A stretch of DNA of 64,000 nucleotides, from NCBI GenBank assembly GCA_016932015.1, contig JAFGDQ010000019.1, positions 11,214 to 75,213 of the forward strand. The letters are read 5' to 3'. Of the stretch, positions 38,499-59,205 are shown in pieces; positions within the stretch are counted from its first letter, which is position 1; every line of letters starts with the position of its first letter. The notes beneath the pieces were generated by a model. That model saw only the letters and a program-made list of their open reading frames with translations. It was not told where the DNA came from and searched no databases. Both the position numbers and the translations under genes were made by a program. This stretch comes from Spirochaetota bacterium. GTDB taxonomy: Bacteria > Spirochaetota > UBA4802 > JAFGDQ01.

Positions 38499-39827
38499 GT
38501 GATGAAACATATCACAATTATTTTTGCTTTTTTACTTTTTTTAACTTCAGGGATAAGCAGTTTATCCGCAGCTGATAAAACAGTTAAACTGGTTGCCCAG
38601 GGCGAGAAGTTTCCCGAGGTTGAGCTGATTGTCAATGTAAGGGACAAGGCATCAGGTACAGGTGTATACGGCTTGGCCAAATCCGGTTTTCAGATTCTGG
38701 AAGGCGGCAGTAAACAGGAGATAACCTCCTTTGTCCCGAAAGGCGAAGGCAAGGTTGACGCTATAGACATTGTTTTTGTTTTTGATGAAACAGGAAGCAT
38801 GCAGGATGAGATCAATGCTGTCCGTGATAATTCAATGCTGTTCGCTGATATCCTTAAAGCGTCTAATATGGATTACAGGGTTGCACTTGTAACCTTCAGT
38901 GACAAGGTTGAGAAGGTAAAGGATTTTACAAAAAATATTGATGAGTTCAAATCATGGCTTTCCGCAATAAGGGCATACGGCGGAGGGGATGATCCTGAAA
39001 ATGATCTTGATGCAATTGCAAGAGCAATGGAATTGAAATTCAGAAGCGGCGCGAAAGTTGTGTTTATATTAATTACAGACGCTCCTTATCATCAGGGTGA
39101 TTCCGTAACAAAGAGATATATGCTTCCTCTTGCAAAGAAACTTAAACTCGAAGATATTAAAGTTTATCCGATTGCCATAAAGCTTGATCAGTATATCTGG
39201 ATGGCGAGGGAAACAGGCGGACAGTATTTTGATATTCTCGGGGATTTCTCGTCAATGATCGAGGAGATCGCTACTGTACTTACAGCGCAGTATACAATAA
39301 AGTACGTACCTTCAAATTCCTCTTTTGATAATACATGGCGCAGTGTTGAAGTAAAGATTGACGGAATCGGATCTGCAAAAAATAAATATAAGTCAGCTTC
39401 AAATATTGTTGCCTCTTCACAGCTGATTGAAAAGTACAGGCCTTCAGACGCATATAAACCGGCCAATATCGCGGACGGGAACAAGCTAACAGCATGGAGC
39501 GAAGGAGAGAGCGGAAATGGTATTGGCGAATGGATCCGGTTCGGTTTTGATACGCCCAAAAATTTAAAGGCGATTAAAATCATCGCGGGTTATACGAAGA
39601 CTGATAGGATTTATAAGGCAAATAACCGCGTTAAAAAACTGAAGATAATTTTTTCCAACGGCAAATCGCAGACTGCTGAGTTAAAGGATGTACAGGATTT
39701 TCAGCGTATACTTATTGACAGAGACACTCCTACAAAATTTGTAAAGCTTGAAATTATGGATGTTTACCGCGGAGCGAAGTACAAAGATACATGTATCTCA
39801 GAAGTCGAGTTTGAATATAAGGACTAA
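38499..39827 (+). CDS. secreted von Willebrand factor A protein with C-terminal discoidin/F5-8-type-C-like domain
   Basis: Signal peptide. MIDAS motif DETGSM...(T)...D in the vWA core. C-terminal ...NIADGNKLTAWSEG....GEWIRFGF... jelly-roll pattern. Confidence 0.7.
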   Translation: MMKHITIIFAFLLFLTSGISSLSAADKTVKLVAQGEKFPEVELIVNVRDKASGTGVYGLAKSGFQILEGGSKQEITSFVPKGEGKVDAIDIVFVFDETGSMQDEINAVRDNSMLFADILKASNMDYRVALVTFSDKVEKVKDFTKNIDEFKSWLSAIRAYGGGDDPENDLDAIARAMELKFRSGAKVVFILITDAPYHQGDSVTKRYMLPLAKKLKLEDIKVYPIAIKLDQYIWMARETGGQYFDILGDFSSMIEEIATVLTAQYTIKYVPSNSSFDNTWRSVEVKIDGIGSAKNKYKSASNIVASSQLIEKYRPSDAYKPANIADGNKLTAWSEGESGNGIGEWIRFGFDTPKNLKAIKIIAGYTKTDRIYKANNRVKKLKIIFSNGKSQTAELKDVQDFQRILIDRDTPTKFVKLEIMDVYRGAKYKDTCISEVEFEYKD

Positions 39828-43233: not shown

Positions 43234-44406
43234 ATGAGGAGTATTATGAATCCGGATAGAAAAACACGATTCAATATTATATTTATTCTTTTTATGATTT
43301 TGACGGTTCCCGCATTACTGTCCGCAAAGACAGTCGCCTTTATCGGCGTACAGAATCTTTCTCTGAACTCTGAATATGATTACCTGGCAGCCTTTACGGA
43401 GGGAGTCATTCTTTTTGATTTATCGGGATTAAAAGATATAACACTAGTTGAAAGAACAAGGCTTGAAAAAATACTGAATGAGCAGCAGCTTCATCTTGCA
43501 GGCCTGACTGAAAAAGAGCAGGAGAAAAAATCAATTGAGGTCGGACGTCTGCTGGCAGCTGACAGTCTTGTTTCAGTGGACTATACTCTTGTTGGCGGAG
43601 AGGTCGCTTTCACTTCGCGGGTTGTAGATACATCAAAAGGATCTGTACAGGTTGTGACTTCACGCGGCACACTGGAAAATGATATTCATATACTTTCTGA
43701 GGGTCTGGCAAGAATTCTTACAGGGAAAAATTATTCATTTGTTAATGAGGCAGAAAAAAGAAGCCTGCTTACTATGCGTGATATCGTGCCCGGAACAATT
43801 TCTCTTTACTGCAATCTGCAGCATGCGGAGATTAAGCTGAATGACAAGTTTGCAGGGTATACAACAGGAAATCTTTATACTCCTTTGACAATACCGGATA
43901 TTGATCCCGGTACTTATAATATGAAGATCAGTCTTTCAAAAGATTTCGGTGTAATAAAACTTCCCGAATTTATTTTTTCGGATTGGCAGGAGAAAGTTAC
44001 TGTAAAGCCGGGAAGAATAACAATTCAGAAAGCTGTTATAAGGCATTTTAATGATATGATATACAATTATGCTGAACTTTTTGATGAAGACTATGAACTG
44101 ACTGAAAAGGATCCTGAGCTGAAAAGCAGTAAAAGTATATCCTTTACAGACAGAACAGGCAAAGAGATCCAAATGGATTTAAATATATCTGCTAACCGGA
44201 CAGCGGCAGGCCCGAATATAATCTGCATGCTTGTATATGAAGGTAAAAATAATAAACTGGAAATTACTGAAAAAGATTCAAGGAAAGACATGGCCGTTGG
44301 TAAGGTAAAATTAAAATTTGATCTTCGTTCACATCGTGACAACAGCGACAGGTTTAATATCAGAATAATCAGAACTGATATTTATCAGGGTATGCACAGA
44401 CAATAA
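43234..44406 (+). CDS. secreted CsgG/FlgO-like domain protein with PEGA domain
   Basis: N-terminal region has the CsgG-like pattern (ERTRLEKILNEQQL...GRLLAADSLVS). A central PEGA-like motif follows (AEIKLNDKFAGYT). Confidence 0.5.
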   Translation: MRSIMNPDRKTRFNIIFILFMILTVPALLSAKTVAFIGVQNLSLNSEYDYLAAFTEGVILFDLSGLKDITLVERTRLEKILNEQQLHLAGLTEKEQEKKSIEVGRLLAADSLVSVDYTLVGGEVAFTSRVVDTSKGSVQVVTSRGTLENDIHILSEGLARILTGKNYSFVNEAEKRSLLTMRDIVPGTISLYCNLQHAEIKLNDKFAGYTTGNLYTPLTIPDIDPGTYNMKISLSKDFGVIKLPEFIFSDWQEKVTVKPGRITIQKAVIRHFNDMIYNYAELFDEDYELTEKDPELKSSKSISFTDRTGKEIQMDLNISANRTAAGPNIICMLVYEGKNNKLEITEKDSRKDMAVGKVKLKFDLRSHRDNSDRFNIRIIRTDIYQGMHRQ

Positions 44407-44451
44407 TTAGATGTAAATATAGTATTATTTTTGCAGAATAGCCTGAAAAAA

Positions 44452-45903
44452 TCAGGCTATTTTTTTTACCGGAGAAATTTTATAGGACCTGAAAGTACGC
44501 GCCCGCACACATCCTTTGAAAACTCCTGCCTGATAGAAAATATGTTCTGATAAATAAAACAAAAGAAAAGAAGGATAATTAAGTTCTGGTTTCCTAACTG
44601 CATAGTCCACAGAAGAACAGAGCAGTATCATAAATAAAGCAAGCAGCCACACGGGAAAATAAAAAATTCCGATAAGCAGTAAAGCAGTCAGATAATATCT
44701 TATTAAATGAAATGACAGATAATAAAATAATGAGAAGTAGCTTCGAATTATTGAAAAGAATATTTTTTCCGGTTTTATCCCGCGGTACATGCGGCACATT
44801 CTGAAAATTTTTATTATGCTTTCAGTTAGGTAGCATCCTGCTGAAATCAGAAGCGGAAGAAATGACAGGGAAATGATGCTGACGCAGATTCCGAGAAAAG
44901 CTATGGAGCTTAAAACAGGAGCAGGAAGTATCTTCTTTTTGTTTTTATGAAGAGAGTATAGCACAGCTTCGGATGTCCCGTAATCAGCTCGTCTTTTCAG
45001 CATTTGCAGCAGGGCATTTCTATGCTTGTGCCTGACGGCACCGTGCGGTGCGTAAAGAAGTCTGTATCCTTTTTGCCGCATTCTCCAGCAGAAGTCCACA
45101 TCTTCCCCTACGTGCAGATTTTCGTTTATTCCTCCTGTATCATTGTATACTTTTTTTCTGACAAGGAGATTGCAAGTGGGCACATAAAACGTGTTGTCAT
45201 TATTTCCGCTGAGCTGAAGGTGCTTTCCCATATTAAGCGACGACATGGCACATTCGTAGCGGTCAAGGCCGGACGATTTGTAATATCCGTCAACAAAACC
45301 GCCTGCTGCTCCAACATCCTTCCATTGAAAGTAGGCAGTCAGCTCCTTAAGCCATGTTTTTGAAGCAACACAGTCGCTGTCAAGAAAAGCAAGAATGGTT
45401 CCTTTTGCTTTCTTAGCTCCAATATTACGGCAACAGGACTGGCCGCGGTTTATTTTATTTCTGATGATTTTAACTGGAAATTTTTCTGCAACATCTTCTG
45501 ATCCGTCCGTTGAACCGTCATCAATAACAATAACTTCGAGTTTATTTTTCGGATAGTCCTGGGCGAATACGGAATTCAGGCATTCTTTGAGCTCCCGTTT
45601 ACGGTCTTTACTGGGAATGATAACAGAAACAGAAGGGAGCTTCTCTGCCGGCCTGGCTTGTTTTATTTCAAGCATGCCCTTATTGCTGAAGTAGCTGCAT
45701 ATTTTGAAAACATGTTCTTCACTGGTACCCGCTGATTTTGCAATATCTTTAATAAGCGTTTTACCGTTGCATAATTTCATTATTTCTACAACTCGCTCGT
45801 TGATTTTTATAATTTTCAGCGGAATTTCGGAGATTACAAGGTAAGCGTCCCCTGATTTTTTAAAGCGGATTTTATTTCTTAATTTGTATAGAAGAGGAAT
45901 CAA
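44452..45903 (-). CDS. family-2 glycosyltransferase with N-terminal PqqD-like (RRE) domain and C-terminal TM helices; candidate MftF-like tailoring enzyme
   Basis: Residues ~10-85 show a PqqD-like pattern (INERVVEIMKLCNGKTLIKDIA....SEEHVFKICSYFSNKGMLE). GT2 core (VSVIIPSKDR...VIVIDDGSTDGS, DSDC). Last gene of the mftA-like operon. Confidence 0.7.
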   Translation of the reverse strand: MIPLLYKLRNKIRFKKSGDAYLVISEIPLKIIKINERVVEIMKLCNGKTLIKDIAKSAGTSEEHVFKICSYFSNKGMLEIKQARPAEKLPSVSVIIPSKDRKRELKECLNSVFAQDYPKNKLEVIVIDDGSTDGSEDVAEKFPVKIIRNKINRGQSCCRNIGAKKAKGTILAFLDSDCVASKTWLKELTAYFQWKDVGAAGGFVDGYYKSSGLDRYECAMSSLNMGKHLQLSGNNDNTFYVPTCNLLVRKKVYNDTGGINENLHVGEDVDFCWRMRQKGYRLLYAPHGAVRHKHRNALLQMLKRRADYGTSEAVLYSLHKNKKKILPAPVLSSIAFLGICVSIISLSFLPLLISAGCYLTESIIKIFRMCRMYRGIKPEKIFFSIIRSYFSLFYYLSFHLIRYYLTALLLIGIFYFPVWLLALFMILLCSSVDYAVRKPELNYPSFLLFYLSEHIFYQAGVFKGCVRARTFRSYKISPVKKIA

Positions 45904-45957
45904 TATTAAGCTGACCTGTAAGTAATTAAAATAAGCAGTAAAGATAAAAATAAAATT

Positions 45958-47094
45958 TTAAAAATATTTATCAAGCCCCATATGCTGATGAAGTGATAAA
46001 AAGTTTTTTCCCCCGGATTTAAACATGATTTTAAGATAATGAAATCCTTCAAAAGGAAGAGCGTATCTTTCGAGGCCAGGCTCTGTACATGAAATGCATT
46101 CTTTAAATTTACCGGATTGTTTCCTGAAATTTTTCGCGGTTTTTGATGTAAGTATTTCCTTAAGAGGGCTATTTTTAAAATTGCCGAGATTTGCTTTTAT
46201 AAGCGGACAGGAAAAAATGTCGCCTGTACTTCTTATAAAATAATAATTAAATCCTGCAGAGCATGGTTTTTTAACTTTTTTATTTTTGAAAAAATTGACC
46301 AGCATGTCTTTATGATAGCTCCACAAAAAACGGGGGCTTGCATAGAAACCGATCATTTTGCTTATATCGTTTTCACTGAAGATTAAATTATTTTCAAGGT
46401 CGGTGTTATTGTATCTGTTTTTTGTTATAATGCATGGAGATATGATAGTGAAAAGATTATTCCTTTCCGCGTATTCCATTATGCTGTCAAGCTCGTTAAT
46501 GTTTACAGGCAGTATTGTGGTTTTTAATCCGATTATCAGGTTGCCATATTTTTTTCTTGCCTTGATCGCGCCCTGAATTGTTGTGTTCAGTTTATCCCAT
46601 CCGTTTTTAAAATTTCTGATTTTGTTATGAATTTCTCCTATAGCGTCCATTGCAAAAACAATAATAAGATCAAGCTTATTCTCTTCCATTACCGGAAGTA
46701 TTTCATCAAGTACAGGCAGTATTGTATCAGTGAGAAATCCATTTGAGGTAATTGCAATAGATTTCAGTTTTTTCAGATTACTGCTTTTGAGTTCGCAGAT
46801 ATTTCCAAGAAGCTCAGGAAGATCATTTCTGATAAAAGGTTCGCCGCCTGTAATATCGAGTTCTTTCAGATTCTTCAATTCACGAGCTGAAAGCAGGTTT
46901 ATCCATTCTTTCACAGAACACTCGGGATTGTCATGAGGGGTTTTCCAGATATTGCACATAATGCATCTGGCAATACAGCGCTGTGTAATTTCAAGGCTGA
47001 GAATTTCAGTGGCAGGGGAAATTCCTGTTAATTTATAAAAACGATACTTAATCCCTTTTAGAATAAGCTTCAGGGTTATAAATAAAATGTTCAT
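45958..47094 (-). CDS. radical SAM / SPASM-domain protein (second maturase-like enzyme in the cluster)
   Basis: CxxxCxxC (CIARCIMC), GGEP motif, C-terminal Cys-rich SPASM-like region (CSAGFNYYFIRSTGDIFSCP...CISC). Confidence 0.8.
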   Translation of the reverse strand: MNILFITLKLILKGIKYRFYKLTGISPATEILSLEITQRCIARCIMCNIWKTPHDNPECSVKEWINLLSARELKNLKELDITGGEPFIRNDLPELLGNICELKSSNLKKLKSIAITSNGFLTDTILPVLDEILPVMEENKLDLIIVFAMDAIGEIHNKIRNFKNGWDKLNTTIQGAIKARKKYGNLIIGLKTTILPVNINELDSIMEYAERNNLFTIISPCIITKNRYNNTDLENNLIFSENDISKMIGFYASPRFLWSYHKDMLVNFFKNKKVKKPCSAGFNYYFIRSTGDIFSCPLIKANLGNFKNSPLKEILTSKTAKNFRKQSGKFKECISCTEPGLERYALPFEGFHYLKIMFKSGGKNFLSLHQHMGLDKYF

Positions 47095-47153
47095 TAAGAA
47101 TAATAGTAAAGAATGGATTTAATATTTATCAATAACGGTTTGTTCCAAGTATT

Positions 47154-48206
47154 CTATGATGCTATCCCGGCGGATTCATTCTGCGACAGATACTCCTGAA
47201 AAGAAAGCATGCATTCAGGGTCTGATTGATTAAGTGATTTCGTTAAAAAATATGCGACAGCAGGACAGCCCCCGTGGCATATATTGAATCTCGGGCATGT
47301 TTCACAGGCTTCTACCCGTATGTTTCTGATCATGTTAAACACGGGAGCATTATTCCATACAGATTCAAATGAATCCCTTCCTGCCCGGCCAGAAATGAAA
47401 AAATCATCCTGAAGAAAGGCACAAGGGTATATTTTGCCGTCAGGTGAAACGCTGCAGGTCATTCTTGCGGCTCCGCACATATTAAGCGCAAGATCGCGCC
47501 TGTCCTGCGCTGTAATTGAAAAGAAGGAATCGCCTGTCAGTACATCCCTGTGAGAGCTTAAGAATTCAGAAAGCTCCGCAAGCTGTTCTTTGCTTAAATG
47601 ATATTCTTCCCATACTTTTTTGGCGTTTCCTGAAGGACGAAACCGCGATAGTCTTGTCTTCGCTTCGTAACGTCTGCCGAGTTCATAGAGATCAAGGATT
47701 TCTCTGAAATTTATTGCTGTTACCACTGTATTAATGCTTAAATTAGGGAATGAATGGTTAACAAGATGTTCAATTCCTTTAATTATTCTGTCAAAGGAGC
47801 CCTTTCCTCTGATACGGTCATTTGTTTCTGCAGCGGCTCCGTCAAGGCTTACCTGAATATAAAGGAGGTCCATGGCTGTTAGTTTTTTAGCGAGTGAGTC
47901 ATTAAGAGTTGTACCGTTTGTACTCACGCATGTTGTGATCCCCTTTTTGTGAGTATAGTTAAGAATGTCAATGAAATCCTCTCTTAAAAACGGTTCACCC
48001 CCGCCGAAATTAATTTGAAACACGCTCATTCTGTAAAGTTCATCAATGAATGAACAGCATTGTTCAAAGCTGAGTTCATCGTCACAGTGTTTGATGGTTT
48101 CTGCGGAAAGACAGTGGCTGCAGTGAAGATTGCATTTTTTTGTAATCTCCCATGTTAGATTCACAGGTGCGCTGAGCAGGTCTTTATATGCTGCTTCGTA
48201 CTTCAA
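47154..48206 (-). CDS. mftC: MftC-like radical SAM / SPASM peptide maturase
   Basis: N-terminus LTWEITKKCNLHCSHCLS closely matches the MftC signature (LTWELT..CNL.C.HCLS). SPASM cysteines (CGAARMTCSVSPDGKIYPC...CETCPRFNICHGGC). Overlaps the MftB-like gene by 23 nt. Confidence 0.8.
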   Translation of the reverse strand: MKYEAAYKDLLSAPVNLTWEITKKCNLHCSHCLSAETIKHCDDELSFEQCCSFIDELYRMSVFQINFGGGEPFLREDFIDILNYTHKKGITTCVSTNGTTLNDSLAKKLTAMDLLYIQVSLDGAAAETNDRIRGKGSFDRIIKGIEHLVNHSFPNLSINTVVTAINFREILDLYELGRRYEAKTRLSRFRPSGNAKKVWEEYHLSKEQLAELSEFLSSHRDVLTGDSFFSITAQDRRDLALNMCGAARMTCSVSPDGKIYPCAFLQDDFFISGRAGRDSFESVWNNAPVFNMIRNIRVEACETCPRFNICHGGCPAVAYFLTKSLNQSDPECMLSFQEYLSQNESAGIAS

Positions 48207-48489
48207 GGATAAGCCCCTTTTTAATTAATGTTTTCAGCAGTCTTTTTATTCTTTCTATGTCATAGCTGTTTTTGCAATGATGTTTAAGAAAGTATTGTTT
48301 CGAATCTATCGATCCGTTCGAATCTATCGATTCGTTCGAATCAATTGATTCGATAGTAAGGAAGCTGCCGGATTTGATAAAAGTCAGATTCGTATCTTTA
48401 CTGTTGTAAAGTAAAAGGCCGAATTTTTCCGGCCTGGCTCTCACGCCGGGTGAGAGCCGGTAAAATGTATTGCCGTCTAAAATATTCAC
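48184..48489 (-). CDS. mftB: MftB-like PqqD-family RiPP recognition element (peptide chaperone)
   Basis: 101 aa. FYRLSPGVRARPEKFGLLLYNSKDTNLTFIKS matches the MftB pattern (L.P.V.LR.E.FG.L.Y......L.F). GTG start 3 nt after the precursor stop. Confidence 0.7.
   Translation of the reverse strand: MNILDGNTFYRLSPGVRARPEKFGLLLYNSKDTNLTFIKSGSFLTIESIDSNESIDSNGSIDSKQYFLKHHCKNSYDIERIKRLLKTLIKKGLILEVRSSI
48295..48354. repeat. imperfect 18-nt tandem repeat x3 inside mftB-like gene (encodes (E/G)SIDSN x3)
   Basis: cgaatctatcgatccgtt / cgaatctatcgattcgtt / cgaatcaattgattcgat read directly. In-frame 6-aa repeats. Confidence 0.6.
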
Positions 48490-48491
48490 TT

Positions 48492-48620
48492 TTAATAAAC
48501 TCCGCAGATTCCGTCAACTGCGAGATCTTCTACCTCAATTTCTTCAAGAATATCTGTTTTTTCGTTTTTTACTTCCTCTTCATCCTTGATTTCTTTGTCT
48601 TTCATTAAAACAGTTTTCAT
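48492..48620 (-). CDS. mftA: mycofactocin-precursor-like peptide (MftA-like), 42 aa: MKTVLMKDKEIKDEEEVKNEKTDILEEIEVEDLAVDGICGVY
   Basis: Not in the ORF track (<60 aa). Found by translating the minus strand. RBS AGAGGA is 8 nt upstream of the ATG. Acidic leader. C-terminal VDGICGVY-stop matches the IDGMCGVY core of MftA. The MftB-like gene follows immediately. Confidence 0.75.
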   Translation of the reverse strand: MKTVLMKDKEIKDEEEVKNEKTDILEEIEVEDLAVDGICGVY

Positions 48621-48710
48621 TTTGATGTTCCTCTTTAATAAAATATTTTTTAATTATTAGTGATAAAACCGGTAAAATAATTTTCAGAATATTTTTCTGG
48701 AAATTATTTA

Positions 48711-49817
48711 TTAAAATTCACAAACCCAGCGTCCATGTATTTTATGTTCACGCATTGCGTCATGAACAGACTGCAGCTCTTCAAGTTTAAATTTTTTAGT
48801 GATCAGCTTATCCAGATCAATATATCTTTTATCCATAACAAGGTCGGCAAAAGCCGGGATATCGGTATGTACATGAACATGTCCGTACATTACGCCTATT
48901 ATATCTTTAGCATGGAGCGGAGTAAAAATAATCTGTAACTGAGCTTTCTTTGATGCGTCCTGAAGTCCGATTTGTATCTGCTTGCCTCCGATTCCAAGAG
49001 CCCAGTAAATCTGTTCAATCGCACCCACATCTCCGCTCGCTTCAAACGCATAATCAACTCCGCCTCCGCTCAGTTCCTGAACAATCGGTATAGGGTCCTG
49101 CTTGCTGCTGTCAATAAAATGAGTAGCTCCGAATTCCTTGGCTATGGCTTCCTTGCTGCCCTCTATGTCAACAGCTATTATCGGTTTTGCTCCTGCTAAT
49201 TTTGCTCCCTGAAGGACATTCAGCCCAATGCCGCCAATACCCCATACGGCAACACTGTCGCCGGGTTTTACATTCGCGGTGTTAATTACAGCGCCTAATC
49301 CGGTGGGAACGCAGCAGCCGAGCAATGCAGCCTGATCCAGCGGGAAATCCTCTCTTAATTTTATGGCGCCGGATTCCGGAATTACAAGATATTCGGCGAA
49401 ACCTGAAACGAATACTGAATGGTACAGTGGCTTCCCGTTAGCGTCTGTAAGTCTTGATGTGCCGTCAAGCAGTGAACCGGCTTCGATAAAATTCCGGTAT
49501 TCGGGACAGATGTATTCGTTTCCCTTTACGCATTGCTTGCATCTTCCGCATGACACAGCCCAGCAGGCTACAACATGATCTCCTTTTTTTATTCTTTTTA
49601 CACCGGGGCCTACATCGACAACAACGCCCGAGGCCTCGTGACCTGTTACGAACGGGATCGGGAATAACTGGCCACTTTCTACAGCTGAAAAATCGGAATG
49701 ACAATACCCGCAATAATGTGTTTTTACAAGAACTTCATTTTCTTTAGGCGGCGCAAGATTTACTTCCTCAATTGTAATAACTTTCGGTTCTCTGACAACC
49801 GCAGCTTTCATTTTCAT
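48711..49817 (-). CDS. zinc-dependent alcohol dehydrogenase (MDR family), candidate nicotinoprotein/mycofactocin-coupled dehydrogenase
   Basis: GYCHSD...G and GHEASGVV catalytic-Zn motifs. Structural Zn CGRCKQCVKGNEYIC. Rossmann motif VWGIGGIGL. The ATG at 49817 with RBS AGGAGG is preferred over the GTG at 49823. Confidence 0.85.
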   Translation of the reverse strand: MKMKAAVVREPKVITIEEVNLAPPKENEVLVKTHYCGYCHSDFSAVESGQLFPIPFVTGHEASGVVVDVGPGVKRIKKGDHVVACWAVSCGRCKQCVKGNEYICPEYRNFIEAGSLLDGTSRLTDANGKPLYHSVFVSGFAEYLVIPESGAIKLREDFPLDQAALLGCCVPTGLGAVINTANVKPGDSVAVWGIGGIGLNVLQGAKLAGAKPIIAVDIEGSKEAIAKEFGATHFIDSSKQDPIPIVQELSGGGVDYAFEASGDVGAIEQIYWALGIGGKQIQIGLQDASKKAQLQIIFTPLHAKDIIGVMYGHVHVHTDIPAFADLVMDKRYIDLDKLITKKFKLEELQSVHDAMREHKIHGRWVCEF

Positions 49818-49853
49818 AAACACCCTCCTGAAATCCTTATGTCAAATTTTAAT

Positions 49854-49876
49854 TCCGCGTTTTATTATACCGCGGA
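49854..49876. promoter_or_regulatory. palindromic operator TCCGCG-N11-CGCGGA bracketing a TATAAT (-10, minus strand) upstream of the ADH-mftABC operon
   Basis: GC-rich 6-bp inverted arms in an AT-rich spacer read directly. TATAAT (rc of 49864-49869) lies between the arms, ~40 nt upstream of the ADH start. Confidence 0.35.
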
Positions 49877-50241
49877 CAAGATTTTACTGAAGTGAAGATA
49901 AATATTGATAATGTTAACTAATACCCTAAAGCTTAAAATAACGTACTAAAAGAAGTCTGAATATATCACTTCTGACAATTCACCAGATATTAAAAAAGGT
50001 GAGGTATATTATCACACATGAAAATATTGAATATTAATATCTCATATATGAATAGTTTATTTTACATATCGCTTTCAGCGCATTAAGAAATAACGCAGTT
50101 GAAGTAAGGCAGGAGTATAGGAATCAGCAAGAACTGTAATGCGCAGGAAATGTATTTTTATATGAAATCTGATGTTCCTGCCTAACATAATAGTTACATT
50201 GGAAAAAAAATAAAAATAAGTCAAATGATTTTCTGATTTGC

Positions 50242-50268
50242 TTGACAATTATGTAACTTAAATATTAT
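50242..50268 (+). promoter_or_regulatory. sigma-70-like promoter (TTGACA -35; TATTAT -10, 15-nt spacer) for the OYE-Etf-cytochrome gene set
   Basis: Perfect TTGACA at 50242-50247 and TATTAT at 50263-50268. The spacer is short, so confidence is low. Confidence 0.3.
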
Positions 50269-50281
50269 CGTAGAATTAATT

Positions 50282-50305
50282 ACTGTAGAAAATACTATTA
50301 CAGTA
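50282..50305. promoter_or_regulatory. inverted repeat TACTGTA-N10-TACAGTA (candidate repressor operator) between promoter and 50392 start
   Basis: Perfect 7-bp inverted arms read directly, ~15 nt downstream of the -10. Confidence 0.4.
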
Positions 50306-50391
50306 TTGCCTTTTTTCTTCACGTTATTTACTTAGGGGTTTCTGCCCTGTCCATTTCCGGGTAGACTAAATTTAAAAAAAAGAATACAGCC

Positions 50392-52338
50392 ATGTCGGAT
50401 AACTTTTTGAGTCCACTGAGCATAGGCAGTATTACTCTGCCTAACCGTGTCTGTTTTCCCGCTCATAGAACAAATTTCTCCGTAAGGGGACGTTTAACCG
50501 ATCAACATATTGCCTACTATTCAAGAAGAGCCCGCGGGAAATGTGGAATGATTATTCTCGGTGAAATCTGCATTCATCCTGATGACAGACCATGGGAATC
50601 CATGATTGAAATATTTAATACTGAAGCAGTTAGGGACTTCCGCAGGATCACAGATGCAGTACATCAATACGGAACATTGATGCTGGCCCAGCTTAACCAT
50701 CACGGATTCCAGAGCAGCGGCAGCATTACAAGAAAAGCCATATGGGGTCCTTCGGCTAATGCTGATATCGTTTTCGGCGAAACATCAAAGCCGATGGAAA
50801 CAGAGGATTTTGAAACAGTAATTAAGGCTTTCTCAGACGCGGCCCTGATCGCGCGTGAAAGCGGATTTGACGGAATTGAAATAGACATCGGGCAGGAATC
50901 TCTGCTCAGACAGTTCCTTTCCCCTTTAACCAATTTCCGCCGGGATGAATACGGCGGAAGTGTTGAAAACAGAATAAAGTTTCCTCTTGATGTATTAAAA
51001 GCAGTTAGAAAAGCTATCGGCAATGATTTCACTGTAGGCGTCAGGCTGTGCGCTGATGAAAAATTCTGGGGAGCAATTACTCTTGAAGATTCAGTACAGT
51101 TTGCTGAAAGGTTTGTCAGCAACGGAAAGGCTGACTTTATTAATGTAACAGTCGGCACTTATTACAGCCTGCATATGTTTATGGCTTCAATGCATGTGCC
51201 ACCCGGGTTTGCTCTTGATGCTGCTGAAGGAATAAAAAAATCCGTAAGCGTTCCTGTAATCGCCTGCCATCAGATAACCACTCCGCAAATGGTGAATGAA
51301 ATTATTGAAAAAGAGCAGGCTGATGCAGCAGGTATGGTGCGCAGTCTCATTTGTGACCCTGATTTCACGTTAAAGGCTATGGAAGGAAGAGCTGATGATA
51401 TTCGCTACTGCGTCAGGGATAATAAAGGATGTATTGGAAGAGTCAACAATAAAAGAAAAATAGAATGCATCCAGAACCCTGAGGTGGGAAGGGAGGAATA
51501 CTATTCAAATTATCCTTTTGCTGCTGAGATAAAAAAACGTGTTATGGTTATCGGTGCCGGTCCTGCTGGAATGGAAGCGGCAATTACAGCAGCAGAGAAA
51601 GGACATGATGTTATTATTTATGAAAAAGAGGATACAGTAGGCGGACAGATAAACCTGATCAAAAAAAGGCCCAGGCGCCAGGGCATGGGCGGAGTAATAA
51701 ATTATCTGCAGAGAAATATTGAAAGACTTGAGATTCCTGTTAAGACAGGTATAGAAGTTAATTCATCGGTAGTTTCGGAGCATAACCCTGATGTTGTTAT
51801 AGTAGCGACAGGATCATTTCCCGCGGCAAAGCCTGTACCCGGAGATTATCAGGCTCCTGATGTTCTTACGGTAAATCAGGTTCTCGGCAGTGCGTTTAGC
51901 ACAGGCGAAAAGATACTTTTTATAGATGAGAACGGCAATCATCATTCGATATCAACGGTTGAGTTTCTCGCTGACCAGGGAAAGAAAGTGGATATGATCA
52001 CCAGCGATCTTTTTATCGGGGTCGAGCTTTCTCCGCTTGGCGACCTTTCCATGTCAAGACAGCGTCTGCTTCAGAGCGGAGTTACGTTTAAAACTGATCT
52101 GATGGTTGATGAAATTCAGGGGAAGCGTGTTGTCGCAAGGGATATGTACACGAACAAACCGGTAATATTCGATGATTATGATACAATCATACTTGATATG
52201 GGGAATGTTCCATGCGATGGAATTTATAAAGAGCTTAAGGGAAAAGTAAAAGAGCTTTATCGCGCCGGTGACTGTGTTGCGCCCAGGGGAATTGACATGG
52301 CAATTCTTGAAGGCCGTAAAGCAGGAGAGAGAATATGA
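50392..52338 (+). CDS. OYE-like FMN oxidoreductase fused to FAD/NAD(P)-binding domain (2,4-dienoyl-CoA reductase / enoate reductase family); Fe-S motif degenerate
   Basis: TIM-barrel OYE motifs (HRTN, GFDGIEI, R...YGGS). C-terminal GAGPAG Rossmann motif. The Cys cluster reads C-x6-C-x11-C (CVRDNKGCIGRVNNKRKIEC), so the second Cys of the usual CxxC is missing. Confidence 0.8.
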   Translation: MSDNFLSPLSIGSITLPNRVCFPAHRTNFSVRGRLTDQHIAYYSRRARGKCGMIILGEICIHPDDRPWESMIEIFNTEAVRDFRRITDAVHQYGTLMLAQLNHHGFQSSGSITRKAIWGPSANADIVFGETSKPMETEDFETVIKAFSDAALIARESGFDGIEIDIGQESLLRQFLSPLTNFRRDEYGGSVENRIKFPLDVLKAVRKAIGNDFTVGVRLCADEKFWGAITLEDSVQFAERFVSNGKADFINVTVGTYYSLHMFMASMHVPPGFALDAAEGIKKSVSVPVIACHQITTPQMVNEIIEKEQADAAGMVRSLICDPDFTLKAMEGRADDIRYCVRDNKGCIGRVNNKRKIECIQNPEVGREEYYSNYPFAAEIKKRVMVIGAGPAGMEAAITAAEKGHDVIIYEKEDTVGGQINLIKKRPRRQGMGGVINYLQRNIERLEIPVKTGIEVNSSVVSEHNPDVVIVATGSFPAAKPVPGDYQAPDVLTVNQVLGSAFSTGEKILFIDENGNHHSISTVEFLADQGKKVDMITSDLFIGVELSPLGDLSMSRQRLLQSGVTFKTDLMVDEIQGKRVVARDMYTNKPVIFDDYDTIILDMGNVPCDGIYKELKGKVKELYRAGDCVAPRGIDMAILEGRKAGERI

Positions 52339-54293
52339 GTGAGTACAAATATCTTTTTTCTCCTTTAAAGATAGGCTCAGCAGTTGTGCCGAACCGTATT
52401 CACTTTGCAGCGCATATGACAAATTTCGGGGAGGCCCAGAAAGTAAGCGAAAGGCATATTGCCTATTACAGGGAGCGCGCAAGAGGCGGTTGCGGTCTTA
52501 TCACTACTGAAGAACTTACGGTTCATCCAACAGACCATGCGTATGAAAAACTTGTGGACGCTTTTAAGCCGGAAGTAATCCCGGGATTCAGGGCGCTTAC
52601 TGATGAAATACATAAATTTGATACAAAAATTTTCGCACAGCTGAATCATAATGGTACACAGGCAGACAGCAGTATATCAAGAATTCCTTTATGGGGACCG
52701 TCCACCTGCGCCGATCCAATGTTCAGGGAAACCTGCAAGGAAATGGAGATTGAGGATATAAAGGAATGCATTGAGTATTATGCGATCAGCGCGCTACATG
52801 CTGTTGAAGGAGGGTTTGACGGTATTGAGCTGCAGTTCGGGCACAGTTCTCTTATAAGGCAGTTCCTGTCTCCTGCAACGAATTTTCGCAAGGATGAATA
52901 CGGCGGAAGTTTTGAGAACAGGCTTCGTTTTGCCGTTGAAGTAATTGAGGCTGTCAGGAAAACGGCAGGCCCTGACTTTACTCTCGGCGTGCGGCTGAAT
53001 GCTGATGAAATGCATCCCAGAGGCGGGATTACTCTGGATGATGCAAAGCTGATCGCCACAGCTTTTGAAAAAACGAATAATATTGATTTTATGGACCTGA
53101 GCCTTGGAACTTTCTATAATCTTTTTCTTGTTGAAGGCTCAATGCATACACCTCTTGCCTATACGGTCCCGCTTTCCGCGGCAATACGCTCAGCTGTTCA
53201 GGTTCCGGTTTTCTGCACAAACCGTATAAATGACCCGCATCTTGCCGAGAGTATTCTTGAAAACGGCCAGGCTGATATGATCGGAATGGTCCGCGCTCTT
53301 ATCTGCGATCCTGAACTGCCTAATAAAGCCAGGGAAGACAGAGCTGAGGATATTCGTTACTGCATAGCATGCAATCAGGGATGTATAGCGCGTATGGGGC
53401 TTGGTCATTCGCTCGGCTGTCTTCAGAATCCTGCAGTAGGGGATGAGAAAAATCTCGGAGCCGGTACACTGAAATCCTGCGAAGAACCGAAAAAAGTCGT
53501 GATAATAGGAGCAGGTCCTGCTGGTCTTGAAGCCGCGAGAACTGCTGCATTAAGAAAGCATAATGTGATTATTTTTGAAAAAAATTCCGAGCCGGGTGGA
53601 CAGAATATTACAGCAGGCAAACCAGCGGGCAGACAGGAAATAACAGGTGTTACAAGGTGGCTGCTTAGCCAGGTAAATAAACTGGATATTGATATGCGTC
53701 TCAATACAGAGGCGGACGTTGAAATGATTTTGAAAGAGAATCCTGATGCTGTTGTAATCGCGACCGGTTCTGTGCCTAAAGAGAGGCCTTTTCCAGGGGA
53801 CTATTCTTTTCCCGATGTGGTAAATACTCAGCAGATACTCAACAAGGAGGTTGAAGCAGGTGATAAGGTACTGCTTGTTGATCTTGAAGGCCATCATCAG
53901 GGGGCCGGAACTGCTGAATTTCTTGCTGATTATGGAAAACAGGTTCACATCATTACATCGTCATTATTTGCTGGTGGTGCTCTCGGGCCGCTTCAGGATC
54001 TGTTTCTTGCAAGAAAGCGCCTTGCTGCAAAAGAGATCACTTTTACTCCGGATATAGCAGTTCTTGAAATTCAGCAGAAGGTGGCCAAGGGTCTTAGCGT
54101 TTATTCAAATGAGATGATAGATTTTGATGAATTTGACACAATAGTTTTATGTGCAGGAAATGTTTCGGATGACAGACTTTACTTTGACCTTAAGGGCAGA
54201 GTTAAGGAGCTTTACAGAATCGGCGACTGTGTTGCCCCGAGAAAAACCGATATGGCCATACTGGAAGGCCACCGTATTGGAAGAATGTTATGA
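52335..54293 (+). CDS. OYE-like FMN oxidoreductase fused to FAD/NAD(P)-binding domain with intact 4Fe-4S motif (2,4-dienoyl-CoA reductase / enoate reductase family)
   Basis: Same architecture as the upstream paralog, but with a complete CIACNQGCIARMGLGHSLGC motif (C-x2-C-x3-C-x10-C). 4-nt overlap with the upstream gene. Confidence 0.8.
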   Translation: MSEYKYLFSPLKIGSAVVPNRIHFAAHMTNFGEAQKVSERHIAYYRERARGGCGLITTEELTVHPTDHAYEKLVDAFKPEVIPGFRALTDEIHKFDTKIFAQLNHNGTQADSSISRIPLWGPSTCADPMFRETCKEMEIEDIKECIEYYAISALHAVEGGFDGIELQFGHSSLIRQFLSPATNFRKDEYGGSFENRLRFAVEVIEAVRKTAGPDFTLGVRLNADEMHPRGGITLDDAKLIATAFEKTNNIDFMDLSLGTFYNLFLVEGSMHTPLAYTVPLSAAIRSAVQVPVFCTNRINDPHLAESILENGQADMIGMVRALICDPELPNKAREDRAEDIRYCIACNQGCIARMGLGHSLGCLQNPAVGDEKNLGAGTLKSCEEPKKVVIIGAGPAGLEAARTAALRKHNVIIFEKNSEPGGQNITAGKPAGRQEITGVTRWLLSQVNKLDIDMRLNTEADVEMILKENPDAVVIATGSVPKERPFPGDYSFPDVVNTQQILNKEVEAGDKVLLVDLEGHHQGAGTAEFLADYGKQVHIITSSLFAGGALGPLQDLFLARKRLAAKEITFTPDIAVLEIQQKVAKGLSVYSNEMIDFDEFDTIVLCAGNVSDDRLYFDLKGRVKELYRIGDCVAPRKTDMAILEGHRIGRML

Positions 54294-55324
54294 GTTCAGA
54301 TAAAATGAACATATGGATTCTTGTAAACCACAGGCAGGGTACTGTTGAAAAGGAGACTTACGGACTTGCTGCCGAGGCACAGAGGCTGTTAACAATGTCG
54401 AAACAGAATTCCGAAGAATATTGTTCCGATGGCAAAATTACAGCTGTAGCGCTTGGAGCAGGGCTTGATGCTGAACTTAAACAGCTGGGTGCATACGGAA
54501 TTAACAGTGTTGTTTATGCTGAAGGGCAGGAGCTGGCAAGATATAACGGGGAATTATTTGCAGAAGTCCTTCTGAAACTGTATGAAAAATATAAGCCTGC
54601 CTGCATACTAATGGATCATAATACGGAAACATCGGATCTTGCACCCAGGCTTGCTTCATTGATGAATACATCCATCGTTACAAGAGTTATAGATTTTACT
54701 ATCAGCATTAACCGGGAAATTGCAGCTACCCGGCCTGTAAGCAGCGGGTATCTGTTTGAAAAATTTAAACTGGAGCGCACATCCTGTCCGGTTATCACAT
54801 TATTACCAAATGTATTAAATGAAACTGAAGCCGCAGAAAACCGGAATATTGAAATCATAAATGAGAAAATAGATCCCGGCACTTTTAATTTAAAAACAAA
54901 GGTTACAGAAATAATGGAAGCTGCACCGGAGGATCTTGAAATTGATGAAGCCGAAATAGTTATTTCAGGTGGCCGGGGTGTAGGCAAAGAGGAGTCTTTA
55001 GATATTATTACCAGGCTGGCAAAGTCTTTGAAAGGCTCTGTCGGAGGAACAAGGCCGATTATTGACTGGCAGCTGCTTCCTTTTGAGCGTCAGATCGGGC
55101 AGACTGGAAAGGTGATATCCCCCAGGCTTTTATTCGCGTGCGGTATTTCAGGAGCAAATGAATATACTACAGGCATGGAAAAATCCCGCCTTGTCGTCGC
55201 AATAAATACTGATCCCGGAGCCCGCATATTCAAGTTTGCTGATTTGTCTGTTATAGGTGATGTACACGAAGTATTACCCCGGGTGATAGAAAAAATAGAG
55301 GAAAGGGGGATATGGAATTTATAA
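54290..55324 (+). CDS. etfA: electron transfer flavoprotein alpha subunit (EtfA-like)
   Basis: FAD-binding C-terminal domain motifs (VISGGRGVG, IAINTDPGARIF). Confidence 0.8.
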   Translation: MSSDKMNIWILVNHRQGTVEKETYGLAAEAQRLLTMSKQNSEEYCSDGKITAVALGAGLDAELKQLGAYGINSVVYAEGQELARYNGELFAEVLLKLYEKYKPACILMDHNTETSDLAPRLASLMNTSIVTRVIDFTISINREIAATRPVSSGYLFEKFKLERTSCPVITLLPNVLNETEAAENRNIEIINEKIDPGTFNLKTKVTEIMEAAPEDLEIDEAEIVISGGRGVGKEESLDIITRLAKSLKGSVGGTRPIIDWQLLPFERQIGQTGKVISPRLLFACGISGANEYTTGMEKSRLVVAINTDPGARIFKFADLSVIGDVHEVLPRVIEKIEERGIWNL

Positions 55325-55933
55325 ATGAAATTAAGTAATTTAATATTCTTTACTTTGTTTTTGCTTTTACCATTGGCTGTTCAGGCTTCTTATTTTCCTG
55401 AGGACTGCATTGCATGCCATGCGGCAAAAGATGGCGACAGCAGTCTTCAGATTCCTTTACAGGAATTTAACGAATCAGCTCACGGCAGAAATGTGACATG
55501 CACAGATTGCCATAATAGTGTTTTGAATGAAGAGCACATGACTGACGGAGCACATGCTGTTGACTGCAGTCAATGTCATCCCGTGGAATCCGGAGCAACG
55601 GATTATTTTTCTTTTCTTCCTTCTCTGCGTGTTAAATGGCATTTAAAAGGAGACTTTAGCGGAAATTACAACAAAAAAAACTGTATCGGATGCCATCAGG
55701 GTAAAGCTTCTCACGGTAAGGAAGGGGCTGTAGATAAACAGAACTGCTATGTATGCCATATGAAAATAAAAGATAATTCAGTAATCGCGAATATTCATCC
55801 TGTAGCAGATCAGAAAAAACAGCCGCTGATTTTTGCATCAGCTGTTATTTATCAGATATTGATTGTTGTTATATTATTAAGTTTAACAGGTTTTATTTTT
55901 AAAAAGATACTCGGGGAAAAAAAGGGTAAGTAA
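55325..55933 (+). CDS. pentahaem c-type cytochrome with C-terminal membrane anchor
   Basis: Signal peptide. Five CxxCH motifs (CIACH, CTDCH, CSQCH, CIGCH, CYVCH). C-terminal hydrophobic helix. Confidence 0.8.
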   Translation: MKLSNLIFFTLFLLLPLAVQASYFPEDCIACHAAKDGDSSLQIPLQEFNESAHGRNVTCTDCHNSVLNEEHMTDGAHAVDCSQCHPVESGATDYFSFLPSLRVKWHLKGDFSGNYNKKNCIGCHQGKASHGKEGAVDKQNCYVCHMKIKDNSVIANIHPVADQKKQPLIFASAVIYQILIVVILLSLTGFIFKKILGEKKGK

Positions 55934-55935
55934 AA

Positions 55936-57837
55936 TTGTTATCCTCATTTGATATTCTATTAACAGTAATCGCTTTATTTATAATGCTTGCAGGTATTTT
56001 CAGGCACAGGTCTGTCTGGAAAGCAGGCAGGGAGGAGTCCCGTTCAGGAAGTTGGGCAGGTCTTATAAAATATATTTTCGAGCATGGTAAGATACTGAAA
56101 AAAAGGGGCAGGGGGATAGCACATTTTTTTGTGTTTTACGGATTTTTTCTTCCCTTGGTTGTTATAATACTGGCACAGTTTAATTTCGAGATTGGCATTA
56201 TTCCTTCAGGAATTGTCTCTCTGCTGCTGGACATCATTGGGACTTTATTCCTGACAGGAATTGTCATTCTTTTAATAAGACGTATTGTTTCTCAGGATTC
56301 AGAGGGTCCGTTAAGGACAATTTTCCCGATGATTATATTGTGCGTTATAATAATAACCGGCTTTCTTGCTGAAGGAGCCCGGCTCGGCATTTCAGGAACA
56401 GAAACAGTATGGGCATCACCTGTGGGCTGGATTTTTTCCGTATTTGTCCCTGCTTCGCCATCCTTTATGCAGATAATAATACGCGTACATTTCTATGCTG
56501 TTTTACTGTTTTTAGCGCTGCTGCCGTTTAATTTTGCAAAACATATTATTGCCTCTTCGCTTAATGTTTATTTTAAAAGAAAAAATCCGCGCGGTGAATT
56601 AAATAAAGCTTATTTAACAGACGATTCCGCAGGAGCGGCTATTGTCAGAGATTTTACATGGAAACAGCTGCTTGATGCAGAGGCTTGCGTGTCATGCGGA
56701 AGATGTGAAGAAAATTGTCCCGCATTTATTTCAGGAAAGCCGTTGTCTCCAAGGAAGATCATCAGAGATATATACAATCTGATGTATCTTTCAAACGGTG
56801 AAAAAATATCATCAAATATGCTGGAGAGTACAATCAGCAATGACGAGATCTGGTCATGCACAGCATGCATGGCCTGTGTAGAGCACTGCCCTGTATACGC
56901 GGAGCCGATGGACAAGATCATTGACATGCGCCGCCATCAGGTTATGTGCAAAGGGCAGCTTCCTGCTGAAGCAGTACCCATGATACGCAATCTTGAGATA
57001 TTCGGCGATGTACAGGGCAAAGGCGCTGCTCACAGAATGGACTGGGCCATGAGTCCTGATCTTGAATTTGCTAATGCTGAAAATGCTGATGCTGATATTC
57101 TGTTATGGCCGGGATGTTCGGGCGCGTTTCATCCGAGATATCAGGAAGTGCTGAAAGCTATGGTAAAGATACTGAACACAGCACGAATCAGGTTCAGCAC
57201 ATTAGGCAAAGATGAATTATGTTGTGGAGATCCTGCAAGACGCCTTGGAAATGAAAGTCTTTTTCTCGAACTGGCCGGGAAAAATATCAGCAGTTTCAGG
57301 AAGAACAATATTAAAAAGATTCTTACTCTTTGCCCGCATTGTTTTAATACTTTAAAGAATGAATATCCTGGAGTTGAAAAAGAATTATTTAATAAATCAA
57401 AAGAAAATATTGAAGTTGTGCATGCTTCTGAATATATAATGGAATTGATTAAAGTAAAACGTATAGTCCCGAAATATCCGCTAAAGAAAAATATTGCTTT
57501 TCAGGACCCGTGTTATCTGGGGCGGGTAAATGGAATTTATAATGAACCGAGAGAAGTAATTTCAAGCATACCGGGAACCGCCTTAAAAGAACTTGATCAC
57601 AACAGGGAAACCGGATTCTGCTGCGGAGGCGGCGGAGGCGGAATGTGGATGCACGAGCATTCCGGTAAACGAATGAACGTTATAAGGGCGGAGGAAGTTG
57701 CAGAAGCTGACCCTGAGGTTTTGTGTACAGCGTGTCCGTATTGTCTGACAATGCTTGAAGACGGGCTTAGTTCTCTGGAGTCGGAAAAAGAGACGAAGGT
57801 GCTTGATATTGTTGAGATTATTGCAGGGGCGATATGA
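55936..57837 (+). CDS. membrane-bound HdrD/DsrK-like iron-sulfur oxidoreductase (N-terminal 5-6 TM domain + 2x[4Fe-4S] + two CCG domains)
   Basis: TTG start after RBS AAGGGTAAG. Ferredoxin motifs CVSCGRCEENCP and CTACMACVEHCP. CCG-domain cysteines (CPGCSG...CCGDP; CPHC...CCGGGGGG...CTACPYC). Resembles fused HdrE/DsrM-HdrD/DsrK modules. Confidence 0.75.
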   Translation: MLSSFDILLTVIALFIMLAGIFRHRSVWKAGREESRSGSWAGLIKYIFEHGKILKKRGRGIAHFFVFYGFFLPLVVIILAQFNFEIGIIPSGIVSLLLDIIGTLFLTGIVILLIRRIVSQDSEGPLRTIFPMIILCVIIITGFLAEGARLGISGTETVWASPVGWIFSVFVPASPSFMQIIIRVHFYAVLLFLALLPFNFAKHIIASSLNVYFKRKNPRGELNKAYLTDDSAGAAIVRDFTWKQLLDAEACVSCGRCEENCPAFISGKPLSPRKIIRDIYNLMYLSNGEKISSNMLESTISNDEIWSCTACMACVEHCPVYAEPMDKIIDMRRHQVMCKGQLPAEAVPMIRNLEIFGDVQGKGAAHRMDWAMSPDLEFANAENADADILLWPGCSGAFHPRYQEVLKAMVKILNTARIRFSTLGKDELCCGDPARRLGNESLFLELAGKNISSFRKNNIKKILTLCPHCFNTLKNEYPGVEKELFNKSKENIEVVHASEYIMELIKVKRIVPKYPLKKNIAFQDPCYLGRVNGIYNEPREVISSIPGTALKELDHNRETGFCCGGGGGGMWMHEHSGKRMNVIRAEEVAEADPEVLCTACPYCLTMLEDGLSSLESEKETKVLDIVEIIAGAI

Positions 57838-57871
57838 CCCCTATCCCCTCGCCATGCTACATATAGCGTTT

Positions 57872-57914
57872 CTCCTTTCCCCTTGGCAAAGGGAAAGGGT
57901 AGAAGCTTGTTTTT
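57872..57914 (+). terminator. GC-rich hairpin (CCTTTCCCCTT/AAGGGAAAGGG) followed by T-run; putative terminator after the HdrD-like gene
   Basis: Read directly. A second similar hairpin (57963-57985) and a GGCCgaaGGCC hairpin (57987-57997) follow. Confidence 0.3.
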
Positions 57915-59190: not shown

Positions 59191-59205
59191 ATAAATGTTT
59201 CTGAT

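Follow-up and report, generated by a model that had tools for sequence, protein, structure and literature searches.

The question raised by this locus is whether a 42-codon open reading frame (ORF) on the minus strand of a Spirochaetota metagenome contig, at positions 48492–48620 of the 64,000-nucleotide stretch analysed here (the window), encodes the precursor of a mycofactocin-type redox cofactor, and whether the surrounding genes would suffice to complete that cofactor. With a probability of roughly 0.88, the ORF is mftA of the subtype termed "variant-type" by NCBI, whose product ends in VDGICGVY and not in IDGMCGVY. The identification adds little by itself: curated NCBI models and GenBank already cover the gene, the family it belongs to and the genes next to it. 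The interest lies in the incomplete pathway rather than in the existence of the ORF, as a sharply conserved precursor variant is widespread in uncultured anaerobes and always occurs, at the loci examined, without the cofactor-releasing and cofactor-activating enzymes of mycobacteria. To our knowledge, all mycofactocin biochemistry derives from aerobic Actinobacteria. If real, a route independent of MftD and MftE would constitute a chemically or functionally distinct "anaerobic mycofactocin", and knowing how the variant systems finish the cofactor could turn mycofactocin from a cofactor of actinobacterial alcohol metabolism into a broader anaerobic electron carrier.

Identification of the precursor gene

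Translation of the minus strand gives MKTVLMKDKEIKDEEEVKNEKTDILEEIEVEDLAVDGICGVY followed by TAA, exactly as read in a first-pass annotation made from the sequence alone. The peptide, encoded from an ATG, has a conserved region (ILEEIEVEDLAVDGICGVY) besides its acidic leader and its Val-Tyr core at the C-terminus; Gly-Val-Tyr are its last residues (...VDGICGVY), with TAA directly after the Tyr codon. The good ribosome-binding site claimed for the gene was likewise observed, in the form of a GAGG Shine-Dalgarno (SD) sequence 9 nt before the ATG.

Family membership was tested by hidden Markov model (HMM) searches with the curated NCBIfam cut-offs, 40 ORFs of the window being scanned. The peptide passes the model of the variant-type mycofactocin precursor, NF040489 (39.6 bits, E-value 4.7e-10, cut-off 30), and marginally that of MftA, TIGR03969 (25.5 bits, cut-off 25). 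The proposal of an MftA-type precursor, for which a search of the peptide and its neighbours had been suggested, is thus borne out by the MftA, MftB and MftC models, and MftF passes as well (Table 1). The comparison with the canonical MftA terminus, given as ...IDGMCGVY, proved accurate because four annotated MftA sequences end in ...IDGMCGVY (three bacteria) or ...IDGICGVY (Haloterrigena).

Two further statements of the first-pass annotation, that the ORF is unannotated and that standard annotation would miss it, do not hold. GenBank lists the gene under the title "MAG: mycofactocin precursor [Spirochaetes bacterium]" as MBN2038993.1; the 177,418-bp contig of a metagenome-assembled genome (MAG) on which it lies also encodes an identical MftC ("mycofactocin radical SAM maturase") and an identical rSAM2 protein. 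NCBI maintains NF040489 as a dedicated model, and a metagenome gene caller did find the gene, the 42-residue form being called in the Logan assembly of SRR13394437. The identification is correct but not new, being known at the annotation level through the NCBIfam models and GenBank.

The GenBank protein begins at the second Met and has 37 residues, otherwise identical to the peptide described here. The start at the first ATG (42 residues) is better supported, because the SD sequence precedes that codon, Leu takes the place of the second Met in the closest homologue (P0003), and the related locus L061 (L numbers denote the loci compared with the window) encodes a 42-residue form too.

Operon structure

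The gene is the first of a minus-strand operon with the order mftA-mftB-mftC-rSAM2-mftF, in which mftF is the last. The mftA stop is separated from the GTG start of mftB by 2 nt and mftB overlaps mftC by 23 nt; mftA, mftB and mftC are therefore translationally coupled. The MftB of Tsukamurella matches the window protein in BLASTP (E-value 1e-08) over the RPExFG region. Aligned with annotated MftCs of Mycolicibacterium, Tsukamurella, Thermomicrobium and Haloterrigena, the window MftC retains both its CX3CX2C motif and its SPASM cysteines; its closest solved structure is PqqE (6c8v, E-value 1.2e-20), and the PqqE model gives 143 bits, below its cut-off of 381. Scans for sigma-70 promoters and terminators over 44000–50600 were uninformative because the counts lay at or below shuffle expectation.

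An in-frame 18-nt unit occurs three times within mftB (48299–48352) and encodes (E/G)SIDSN three times. The repeat insertion brings the window MftB to 101 residues, against 81 in the closest locus (L061).

Conservation and taxonomic distribution

A protein search returned 70 database peptides with the near-invariant C-terminus (I/V)xEEIEVEDLAVDGICGVY, and JGI or NCBI has given several of them the name "mycofactocin precursor" or "variant-type mycofactocin precursor". A scan in which each GTDB species was represented by a single genome, and loci were retrieved by the peptide patterns EEIEVEDL and VDGICGVY, gave 44 variant mftA loci, all in MAGs. Their hosts belong to Thermoleophilia, Gaiellales, other Actinomycetota, Syntrophorhabdales, several Desulfobacterota families, Acidobacteriota, Goldiibacteriota and Desulfocucumis (Firmicutes). 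The DGICGVY end is common to all 44, and it is extended to VDGICGVY in each except L048 (IDGICGVY). When the window was compared with 47 distinct core DNA sequences of homologues, 528 codon changes in the last 19 codons of mftA were synonymous and 88 non-synonymous, against 217 and one in the last eight codons, counts in which protein-level conservation is partly built in, as the loci were picked by peptide pattern. The surroundings are conserved as well, the order dehydrogenase-mftA-mftB-mftC-OYE_2-EtfA-FixC-FixX-EtfB-mftF being kept in related loci. The scores of MftA, MftB, MftC and MftF above their cut-offs, the tight coupling, the SD sequence, the retained cysteines of MftC, the conservation, the synteny, the NCBI annotation and the OYE2b score above the TIGR03997 cut-off therefore support the reading of the ORF as mftA.

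Several points weigh against that reading. The TIGR03969 cut-off is exceeded by a mere 0.5 bit, and the gathering score of Pfam PF23709 is missed (17.5 against 27 bits, E-value 0.0047), a model that appears to be tuned to canonical MftA sequences. The zinc-dependent alcohol dehydrogenase (Zn-ADH) and the short-chain dehydrogenase/reductase (SDR) of the window fall outside the mycofactocin-coupled clades, scoring below the cut-offs of TIGR03989 and TIGR03971, respectively (Table 1), though these models are their best or high-ranking matches. The electron-transfer flavoprotein (ETF) subunits miss the cut-offs for "mycofactocin-associated ETF" (EtfA 128.9 against 240 for NF038209, mft_etfA; EtfB 88.2 against 200 for TIGR04503, mft_etfB). 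Neither the window nor any of the related loci examined contains MftD, MftE, MftG, MftR or MftM, and no experimental work on variant-type mycofactocin systems was found in the searched literature.

The short length of the ORF and its subthreshold PF23709 score would also be expected of a chance, non-functional reading frame, or of a peptide that is made on ribosomes and modified after translation (RiPP) with a role other than that of a cofactor, such as an antimicrobial. Such an origin is highly improbable in view of the NF040489 E-value, the position of the ORF exactly upstream of mftB and mftC, and the large excess of synonymous over non-synonymous changes. The constant neighbours, moreover, encode dehydrogenases and electron-transfer proteins; transporters, immunity genes and proteases are not among them.

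As an mftA locus, the window belongs to a broadly distributed group. The view that mycofactocin loci are almost exclusively actinobacterial was overstated, since Haft 2011 (PMC3023750) lists mycofactocin in strict anaerobes and an archaeon, naming Pelotomaculum, Desulfotomaculum, Geobacter, Chloroflexi and Haloterrigena, and since many lineages of anaerobic diderms have the variant peptide. For the same reasons, i.e., the spread of the 44 loci and the Haft 2011 listing, an anaerobic diderm host is not unusual. The taxonomic surprise is small; as to the phylum, none of the 44 species-representative loci is from Spirochaetota, and among the 120 best MftC relatives a Spirochaetes label is carried by the exact match only, the next relative being 74% identical. 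A Spirochaetota host for variant mycofactocin thus appears to be rare, as far as the sampled sequences indicate.

Some variant mftA copies are "orphans" with no mftB or mftC within ~10 kb (L003:10001-10129, L046:10064-10126 and L049:5021-5086). Their neighbours are a Zn-ADH and an aldehyde:ferredoxin oxidoreductase in L003, and rSAM2 or OYE_2 genes directly after mftA in L046 and L049. Such copies may be additional precursors located next to the enzymes that use the cofactor.

Predicted biosynthesis and its missing steps

The analysis shows the gene identities, the operon structure, the conservation and the lack of mftD and mftE at the locus; all of the chemistry of the window system, like the direction of its electron flow, we infer. 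By analogy with the characterized pathway, MftB would bind the conserved acidic region of MftA and present the peptide to MftC. MftC would oxidatively decarboxylate Tyr42 (-46 Da) and join the C-beta of Val41 to the former C-alpha of Tyr, giving a lactam; MftF would later add glucose units, mycofactocin being decorated with a beta-1,4-glucan. In mycobacteria (PMC9679996, PMC11778925), MftE frees the cyclised Val-Tyr unit (AHDP), MftD oxidatively deaminates AHDP to the redox-active premycofactocin (a keto-amide), and MftG re-oxidises the cofactor, feeding respiration.

Genes for these last enzymes were sought by tblastn at E ≤ 1e-3 in the whole window and ~56 related variant-type loci (977 kb in total), with queries taken from annotated plasmid loci (three MftD, two MftE, and the GMC oxidoreductase MftG, the TetR regulator MftR and the methyltransferase MftM); no match was obtained for any of the five proteins. 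The window has a sigma-54 activator and a Methyltransf_3 O-methyltransferase nearby instead. Neither MftE (TIGR03964) nor MftD (TIGR03966) was matched in the NCBIfam scan of the 40 window ORFs, and no FMN_dh or creatininase domain is present in the Pfam tables of L005–L007, L053 and L056. The absence of mftD and mftE means that the pathway to an active cofactor is incomplete as encoded at the locus, and that the corresponding steps must fall either to different enzymes or to genes in another part of the genome.

If the genes lie elsewhere, outside the window, the product could be an ordinary glycosylated mycofactocin as in mycobacteria. The Val-Tyr core, MftB, MftC and MftF are all in place for it, the portion of the genome inspected is 64 kb, and annotated clusters do vary, Thermomicrobium having mftD without an adjacent mftE and Haloterrigena mftE without mftD. 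This explanation is nevertheless rather unlikely: mftD and mftE are usually clustered in canonical loci, but none of the ~56 variant-type loci has a homologue of either within ~10 kb, and FixC is the sole additional gene family conserved among the variant loci.

A conserved substitute peptidase or FMN dehydrogenase was considered and rejected, as clustering of the unassigned ORFs of the related loci left FixC alone as broadly conserved. Iron-type alcohol dehydrogenases (Fe-ADH) and aldehyde:ferredoxin oxidoreductases recur in subsets of these loci. What is present in place of MftD and MftE across the variant-type loci are FadH/OYE-type flavoenzymes and ETF.

Flavoenzymes and electron transfer at the locus

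In most related loci, the gene directly upstream of variant mftA encodes a Zn-ADH homologue, and the Zn-ADH in this position in the window is likely a partner enzyme dependent on the cofactor. Transcribed divergently from the mft operon is a tandem of two OYE_2 genes, OYE2a and OYE2b (50392..54293); of these, OYE2b passes and OYE2a just misses the cut-off of the model "mycofactocin system FadH/OYE family oxidoreductase 2" (TIGR03997). The closest solved structures to the OYE_2 proteins are 2-naphthoyl-CoA reductase, FadH and trimethylamine dehydrogenase (TMADH), and the family also includes histamine dehydrogenase. In most variant-type loci, a single OYE_2 gene is present and FixC/FixX lie on the same strand, flanked by EtfA and EtfB. 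In the window, by contrast, there are two OYE_2 paralogues in a divergent layout, and a pentaheme cytochrome c with a NarI/HdrD fusion protein occupies the site of FixC/FixX. Besides the window, only L061 and three loci of the Desulfobacterota type (L046, L049 and L056) have this layout, and they also possess the cytochrome/HdrD set. This set suggests a putative link of the locus to membrane or periplasmic electron transport. The cofactor probably carries electrons between the Zn-ADH and the divergently encoded OYE2a/OYE2b, ETF, pentaheme cytochrome c and NarI/HdrD-like protein.

OYE_2 may also have a part in the missing steps. The cofactor could be a distinct one that matures after MftC independently of MftD and MftE, in a manner suited to anaerobes: a FadH/OYE/TMADH flavoenzyme passing electrons to ETF may oxidise the amine, extra radical S-adenosylmethionine (SAM) enzymes may modify the peptide, or the peptide may stay uncleaved. 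MftD requires oxygen, and ETF is the natural electron acceptor of TMADH. The loss of MftD and MftE is paired with the gain of OYE_2 and ETF consistently across loci whose hosts are anaerobic lineages, and Haloterrigena likewise lacks MftD and has OYE, ETF and FixC/FixX genes. Since the OYE_2 family comprises amine-oxidising trimethylamine and histamine dehydrogenases besides ene-reductases, OYE_2 could be an amine-oxidising substitute for MftD. It could also, more simply, exchange electrons between the cofactor and ETF as an analogue of MftG, and a dedicated ETF chain does suit such a high-flux redox partner better than a biosynthetic step. A distinct cofactor, argued entirely from gene context, is a candidate with somewhat less than an even chance. 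No paper in the searched literature connects ETF, FixC or the present lineages with mycofactocin, Haft 2011 being the sole source for non-actinobacterial anaerobes.

A joint reading can be put forward tentatively, in which variant-type maturation proceeds without MftE and MftD, independently of oxygen, possibly with a FadH/OYE/TMADH flavoenzyme and ETF and possibly with a radical SAM modification. In the window, the cofactor would then be linked via ETF, the pentaheme cytochrome c and the NarI/HdrD-like protein to anaerobic membrane electron transport.

The OYE_2 proteins vary in their Fe-S motif, C-x2-C-x3-C-x11-C. OYE2a has Asp as second ligand (YCVRDNKGC) and OYE2b has Cys, and Asp occupies this position in many single-copy OYE_2 proteins too (CIADNQGC); cluster ligation may therefore differ between them. 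Residues 239–282 of the window EtfB, its C-terminal tail, are 59% identical to a free-standing 59-residue ORF on a Desulfobacterales contig (L054:7135-7314), which adjoins an MftF-like glycosyltransferase gene. In the Desulfobacterota-type loci L039, L044, L045, L046, L048 and L051, the neighbouring dehydrogenase is an Fe-ADH, situated, where placed, just upstream of mftA. The Fe-ADH of L039, the representative examined, carries GNPKDHEV, which resembles the TSNPKDYEVH hot spot tied by Haft 2011 (PMC3023750) to mycofactocin-dependent Fe-ADHs.

Additional radical SAM genes

The rSAM2 gene between mftC and mftF belongs to a family of at least 1418 members, all labelled "radical SAM protein". Homologues stand beside mftF in L040, L053 and L056 and after mftF in L038, while in L046 rSAM2 directly follows a second mftA copy. 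In L054, rSAM2 is accompanied by the gene of an MftF-like glycosyltransferase and by an rSAM3-like gene, MoaA, ThiS and ThiF, and in L055 it lies near Mo/W-cofactor genes, without mft genes. A role of rSAM2 as a dedicated second mycofactocin maturase was rejected as a general rule, as two of the four sampled contexts (L054 and L055) lack mftA, mftB and mftC and the closest locus (L061) has no rSAM2. Because of these non-mft contexts and the absence from L061, rSAM2 is regarded as an accessory and not a defining component. For the proposed distinct cofactor, the evidence from these genes is divided: rSAM2 and rSAM3 recur with mftF-like genes, but rSAM2 is missing from L061 and is found outside mft contexts.

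Comparison with related systems

The canonical system of Mycobacteriales (MftA–MftG, MftR and MftM; e.g., the Tsukamurella tyrosinosolvens plasmid locus L059 and M. smegmatis) shares with the window an acidic precursor ending in CGVY, MftB, MftC, MftF and an adjacent alcohol dehydrogenase. It differs in the precursor core (IDGMCGVY versus VDGICGVY) and in possessing MftD, MftE, MftG, MftR and MftM. The window adds radical SAM genes and has OYE_2, ETF, a cytochrome c and an HdrD-like protein where MftG would provide the link to respiration; its host is an anaerobic, diderm, low-GC MAG. The window MftC is 40–41% identical to the two aligned Mycobacteriales MftCs (L057 and L059).

The variant-type loci (NF040489 with TIGR03997, NF038209 and TIGR04503) from MAGs of Thermoleophilia, Gaiellales, Syntrophorhabdales, Desulfobacterota and Acidobacteriota have an identical 19-residue MftA C-terminus. 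They share with the window the dehydrogenase-mftA-mftB-mftC order, OYE_2, ETF and mftF, and the lack of MftD and MftE. Their dehydrogenase is typically a Zn-ADH (most loci), an SDR or Fe-ADH being found in others.

The locus on plasmid pHTUR01 of Haloterrigena turkmenica (L060, a 21-kb stretch examined) resembles the window in its DGICGVY MftA end, MftC, MftF, OYE-like oxidoreductase, EtfA and EtfB and in having no MftD; FixC and a ferredoxin accompany this set. Unlike the window, it encodes MftE, an MftB2-type chaperone and a precursor with another leader upstream of the core, and its host is an archaeon. Biosynthesis of pyrroloquinoline quinone (PQQ; PqqA, PqqD and PqqE) follows the same logic, with a small peptide, a chaperone of the RRE (RiPP recognition element) type and a SPASM radical SAM enzyme whose C-C cross-link is a step towards a redox cofactor, whereas the PQQ precursor (Glu/Tyr cross-link), the downstream enzymes and the product are different.

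Other features of the window and its host

The coordinates of all features are listed in Table 1. Sigma-54 activators similar to the one flanking the cluster are found upstream in L039, L044, L045, L046 and L051. A search for the sigma-54 promoter TGGCAC-N5-TTGCW with at most two mismatches gave 23 matches against 26.6 expected by chance, none of them in the relevant intergenic regions, and no -24/-12 promoter that would be convincing was obtained.

Table 1. Features of the window, with coordinates, strand and the evidence for each assignment
Feature	Position	Strand	Evidence
mftF, mycofactocin glycosyltransferase	44452..45903	-	TIGR03965, 348.5 bits (cut-off 280)
rSAM2, second radical SAM/SPASM gene, between mftC and mftF	45958..47094	-	No NCBIfam equivalog; best match 52.7 bits
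mftC, radical SAM/SPASM maturase	47154..48206	-	TIGR03962, 340.2 bits (cut-off 265)
mftB, peptide chaperone with RPEKFGLL motif	48184..48489	-	TIGR03967, 52.2 bits (cut-off 33)
mftA, variant-type mycofactocin precursor, 42 residues	48492..48620	-	Translation; NF040489, TIGR03969; GenBank MBN2038993.1
Shine-Dalgarno-like AAGAGGAA	48628..48635	-	Read from sequence; GAGG core 48633-48630, 9 nt 5' of mftA ATG
Zn-dependent alcohol dehydrogenase, directly upstream of mftA	48711..49823	-	Best match TIGR03989 (NDMA-dependent ADH), 302 bits (cut-off 440)
OYE2a, FadH/OYE-family FMN/Fe-S/FAD oxidoreductase	50392-52338	+	TIGR03997, 771.4 bits, just under cut-off 793.15
OYE2b, FadH/OYE-family FMN/Fe-S/FAD oxidoreductase	52335-54293	+	TIGR03997, 872.0 bits, above cut-off 793.15
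EtfA	54290-55324	+	ETF domain
Pentaheme cytochrome c, membrane-anchored	55325-55933	+	Cytochrom_CIII; five CxxCH, signal peptide, C-terminal transmembrane segment
NarI-like membrane domain fused to HdrD-like Fe-S/CCG protein	55936-57837	+	CCG x2, Fer4, weak Nitrate_red_gam
EtfB	58333-59190	+	ETF domain
rSAM3, third radical SAM/SPASM gene	59206-60303	+	Best match MftC model, 120.8 bits (cut-off 265)
MoaD/ThiS-like protein with Gly-Gly end, follows rSAM3	60440-60739	+	–
SDR	60775-61539	+	TIGR03971, 169.7 bits (cut-off 300)
Methyltransf_3 O-methyltransferase	61555-62115	+	Domain match
Sigma-54-dependent activator (NifA/NorR-like), flanks cluster	62209-63741	-	–
TolQ/ExbB-TonB gene cluster	26201-29258	+	–
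tRNA-Gln(CTG), unrelated to locus	31263-31337	-	tRNA scan
VWA protein with NADase-type glycan-binding domain	38499-39827	+	–

The base composition of the window is uneven, with a GC fraction of 0.409 over the mycofactocin and electron-transfer region (44452–61539) versus 0.361 over the housekeeping part (1–41500). Identity to L061 reaches 73% for MftC and 81% each for the Zn-ADH and OYE2b; for OYE2b it is 72–73% in L046 and L049, and 72–81% overall across L061 and the Desulfobacterales and Desulfocicer MAGs. The GC difference and the high cross-phylum identities therefore suggest that the mycofactocin gene set may have been acquired horizontally, and transfer into the Spirochaetota MAG is possible because the closest named relatives are in Desulfobacterota.

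Rfam and tRNA scans of the window found the tRNA-Gln alone. The TolQ/ExbB and TonB genes, together with the signal peptide of the pentaheme cytochrome, fit a diderm organism.

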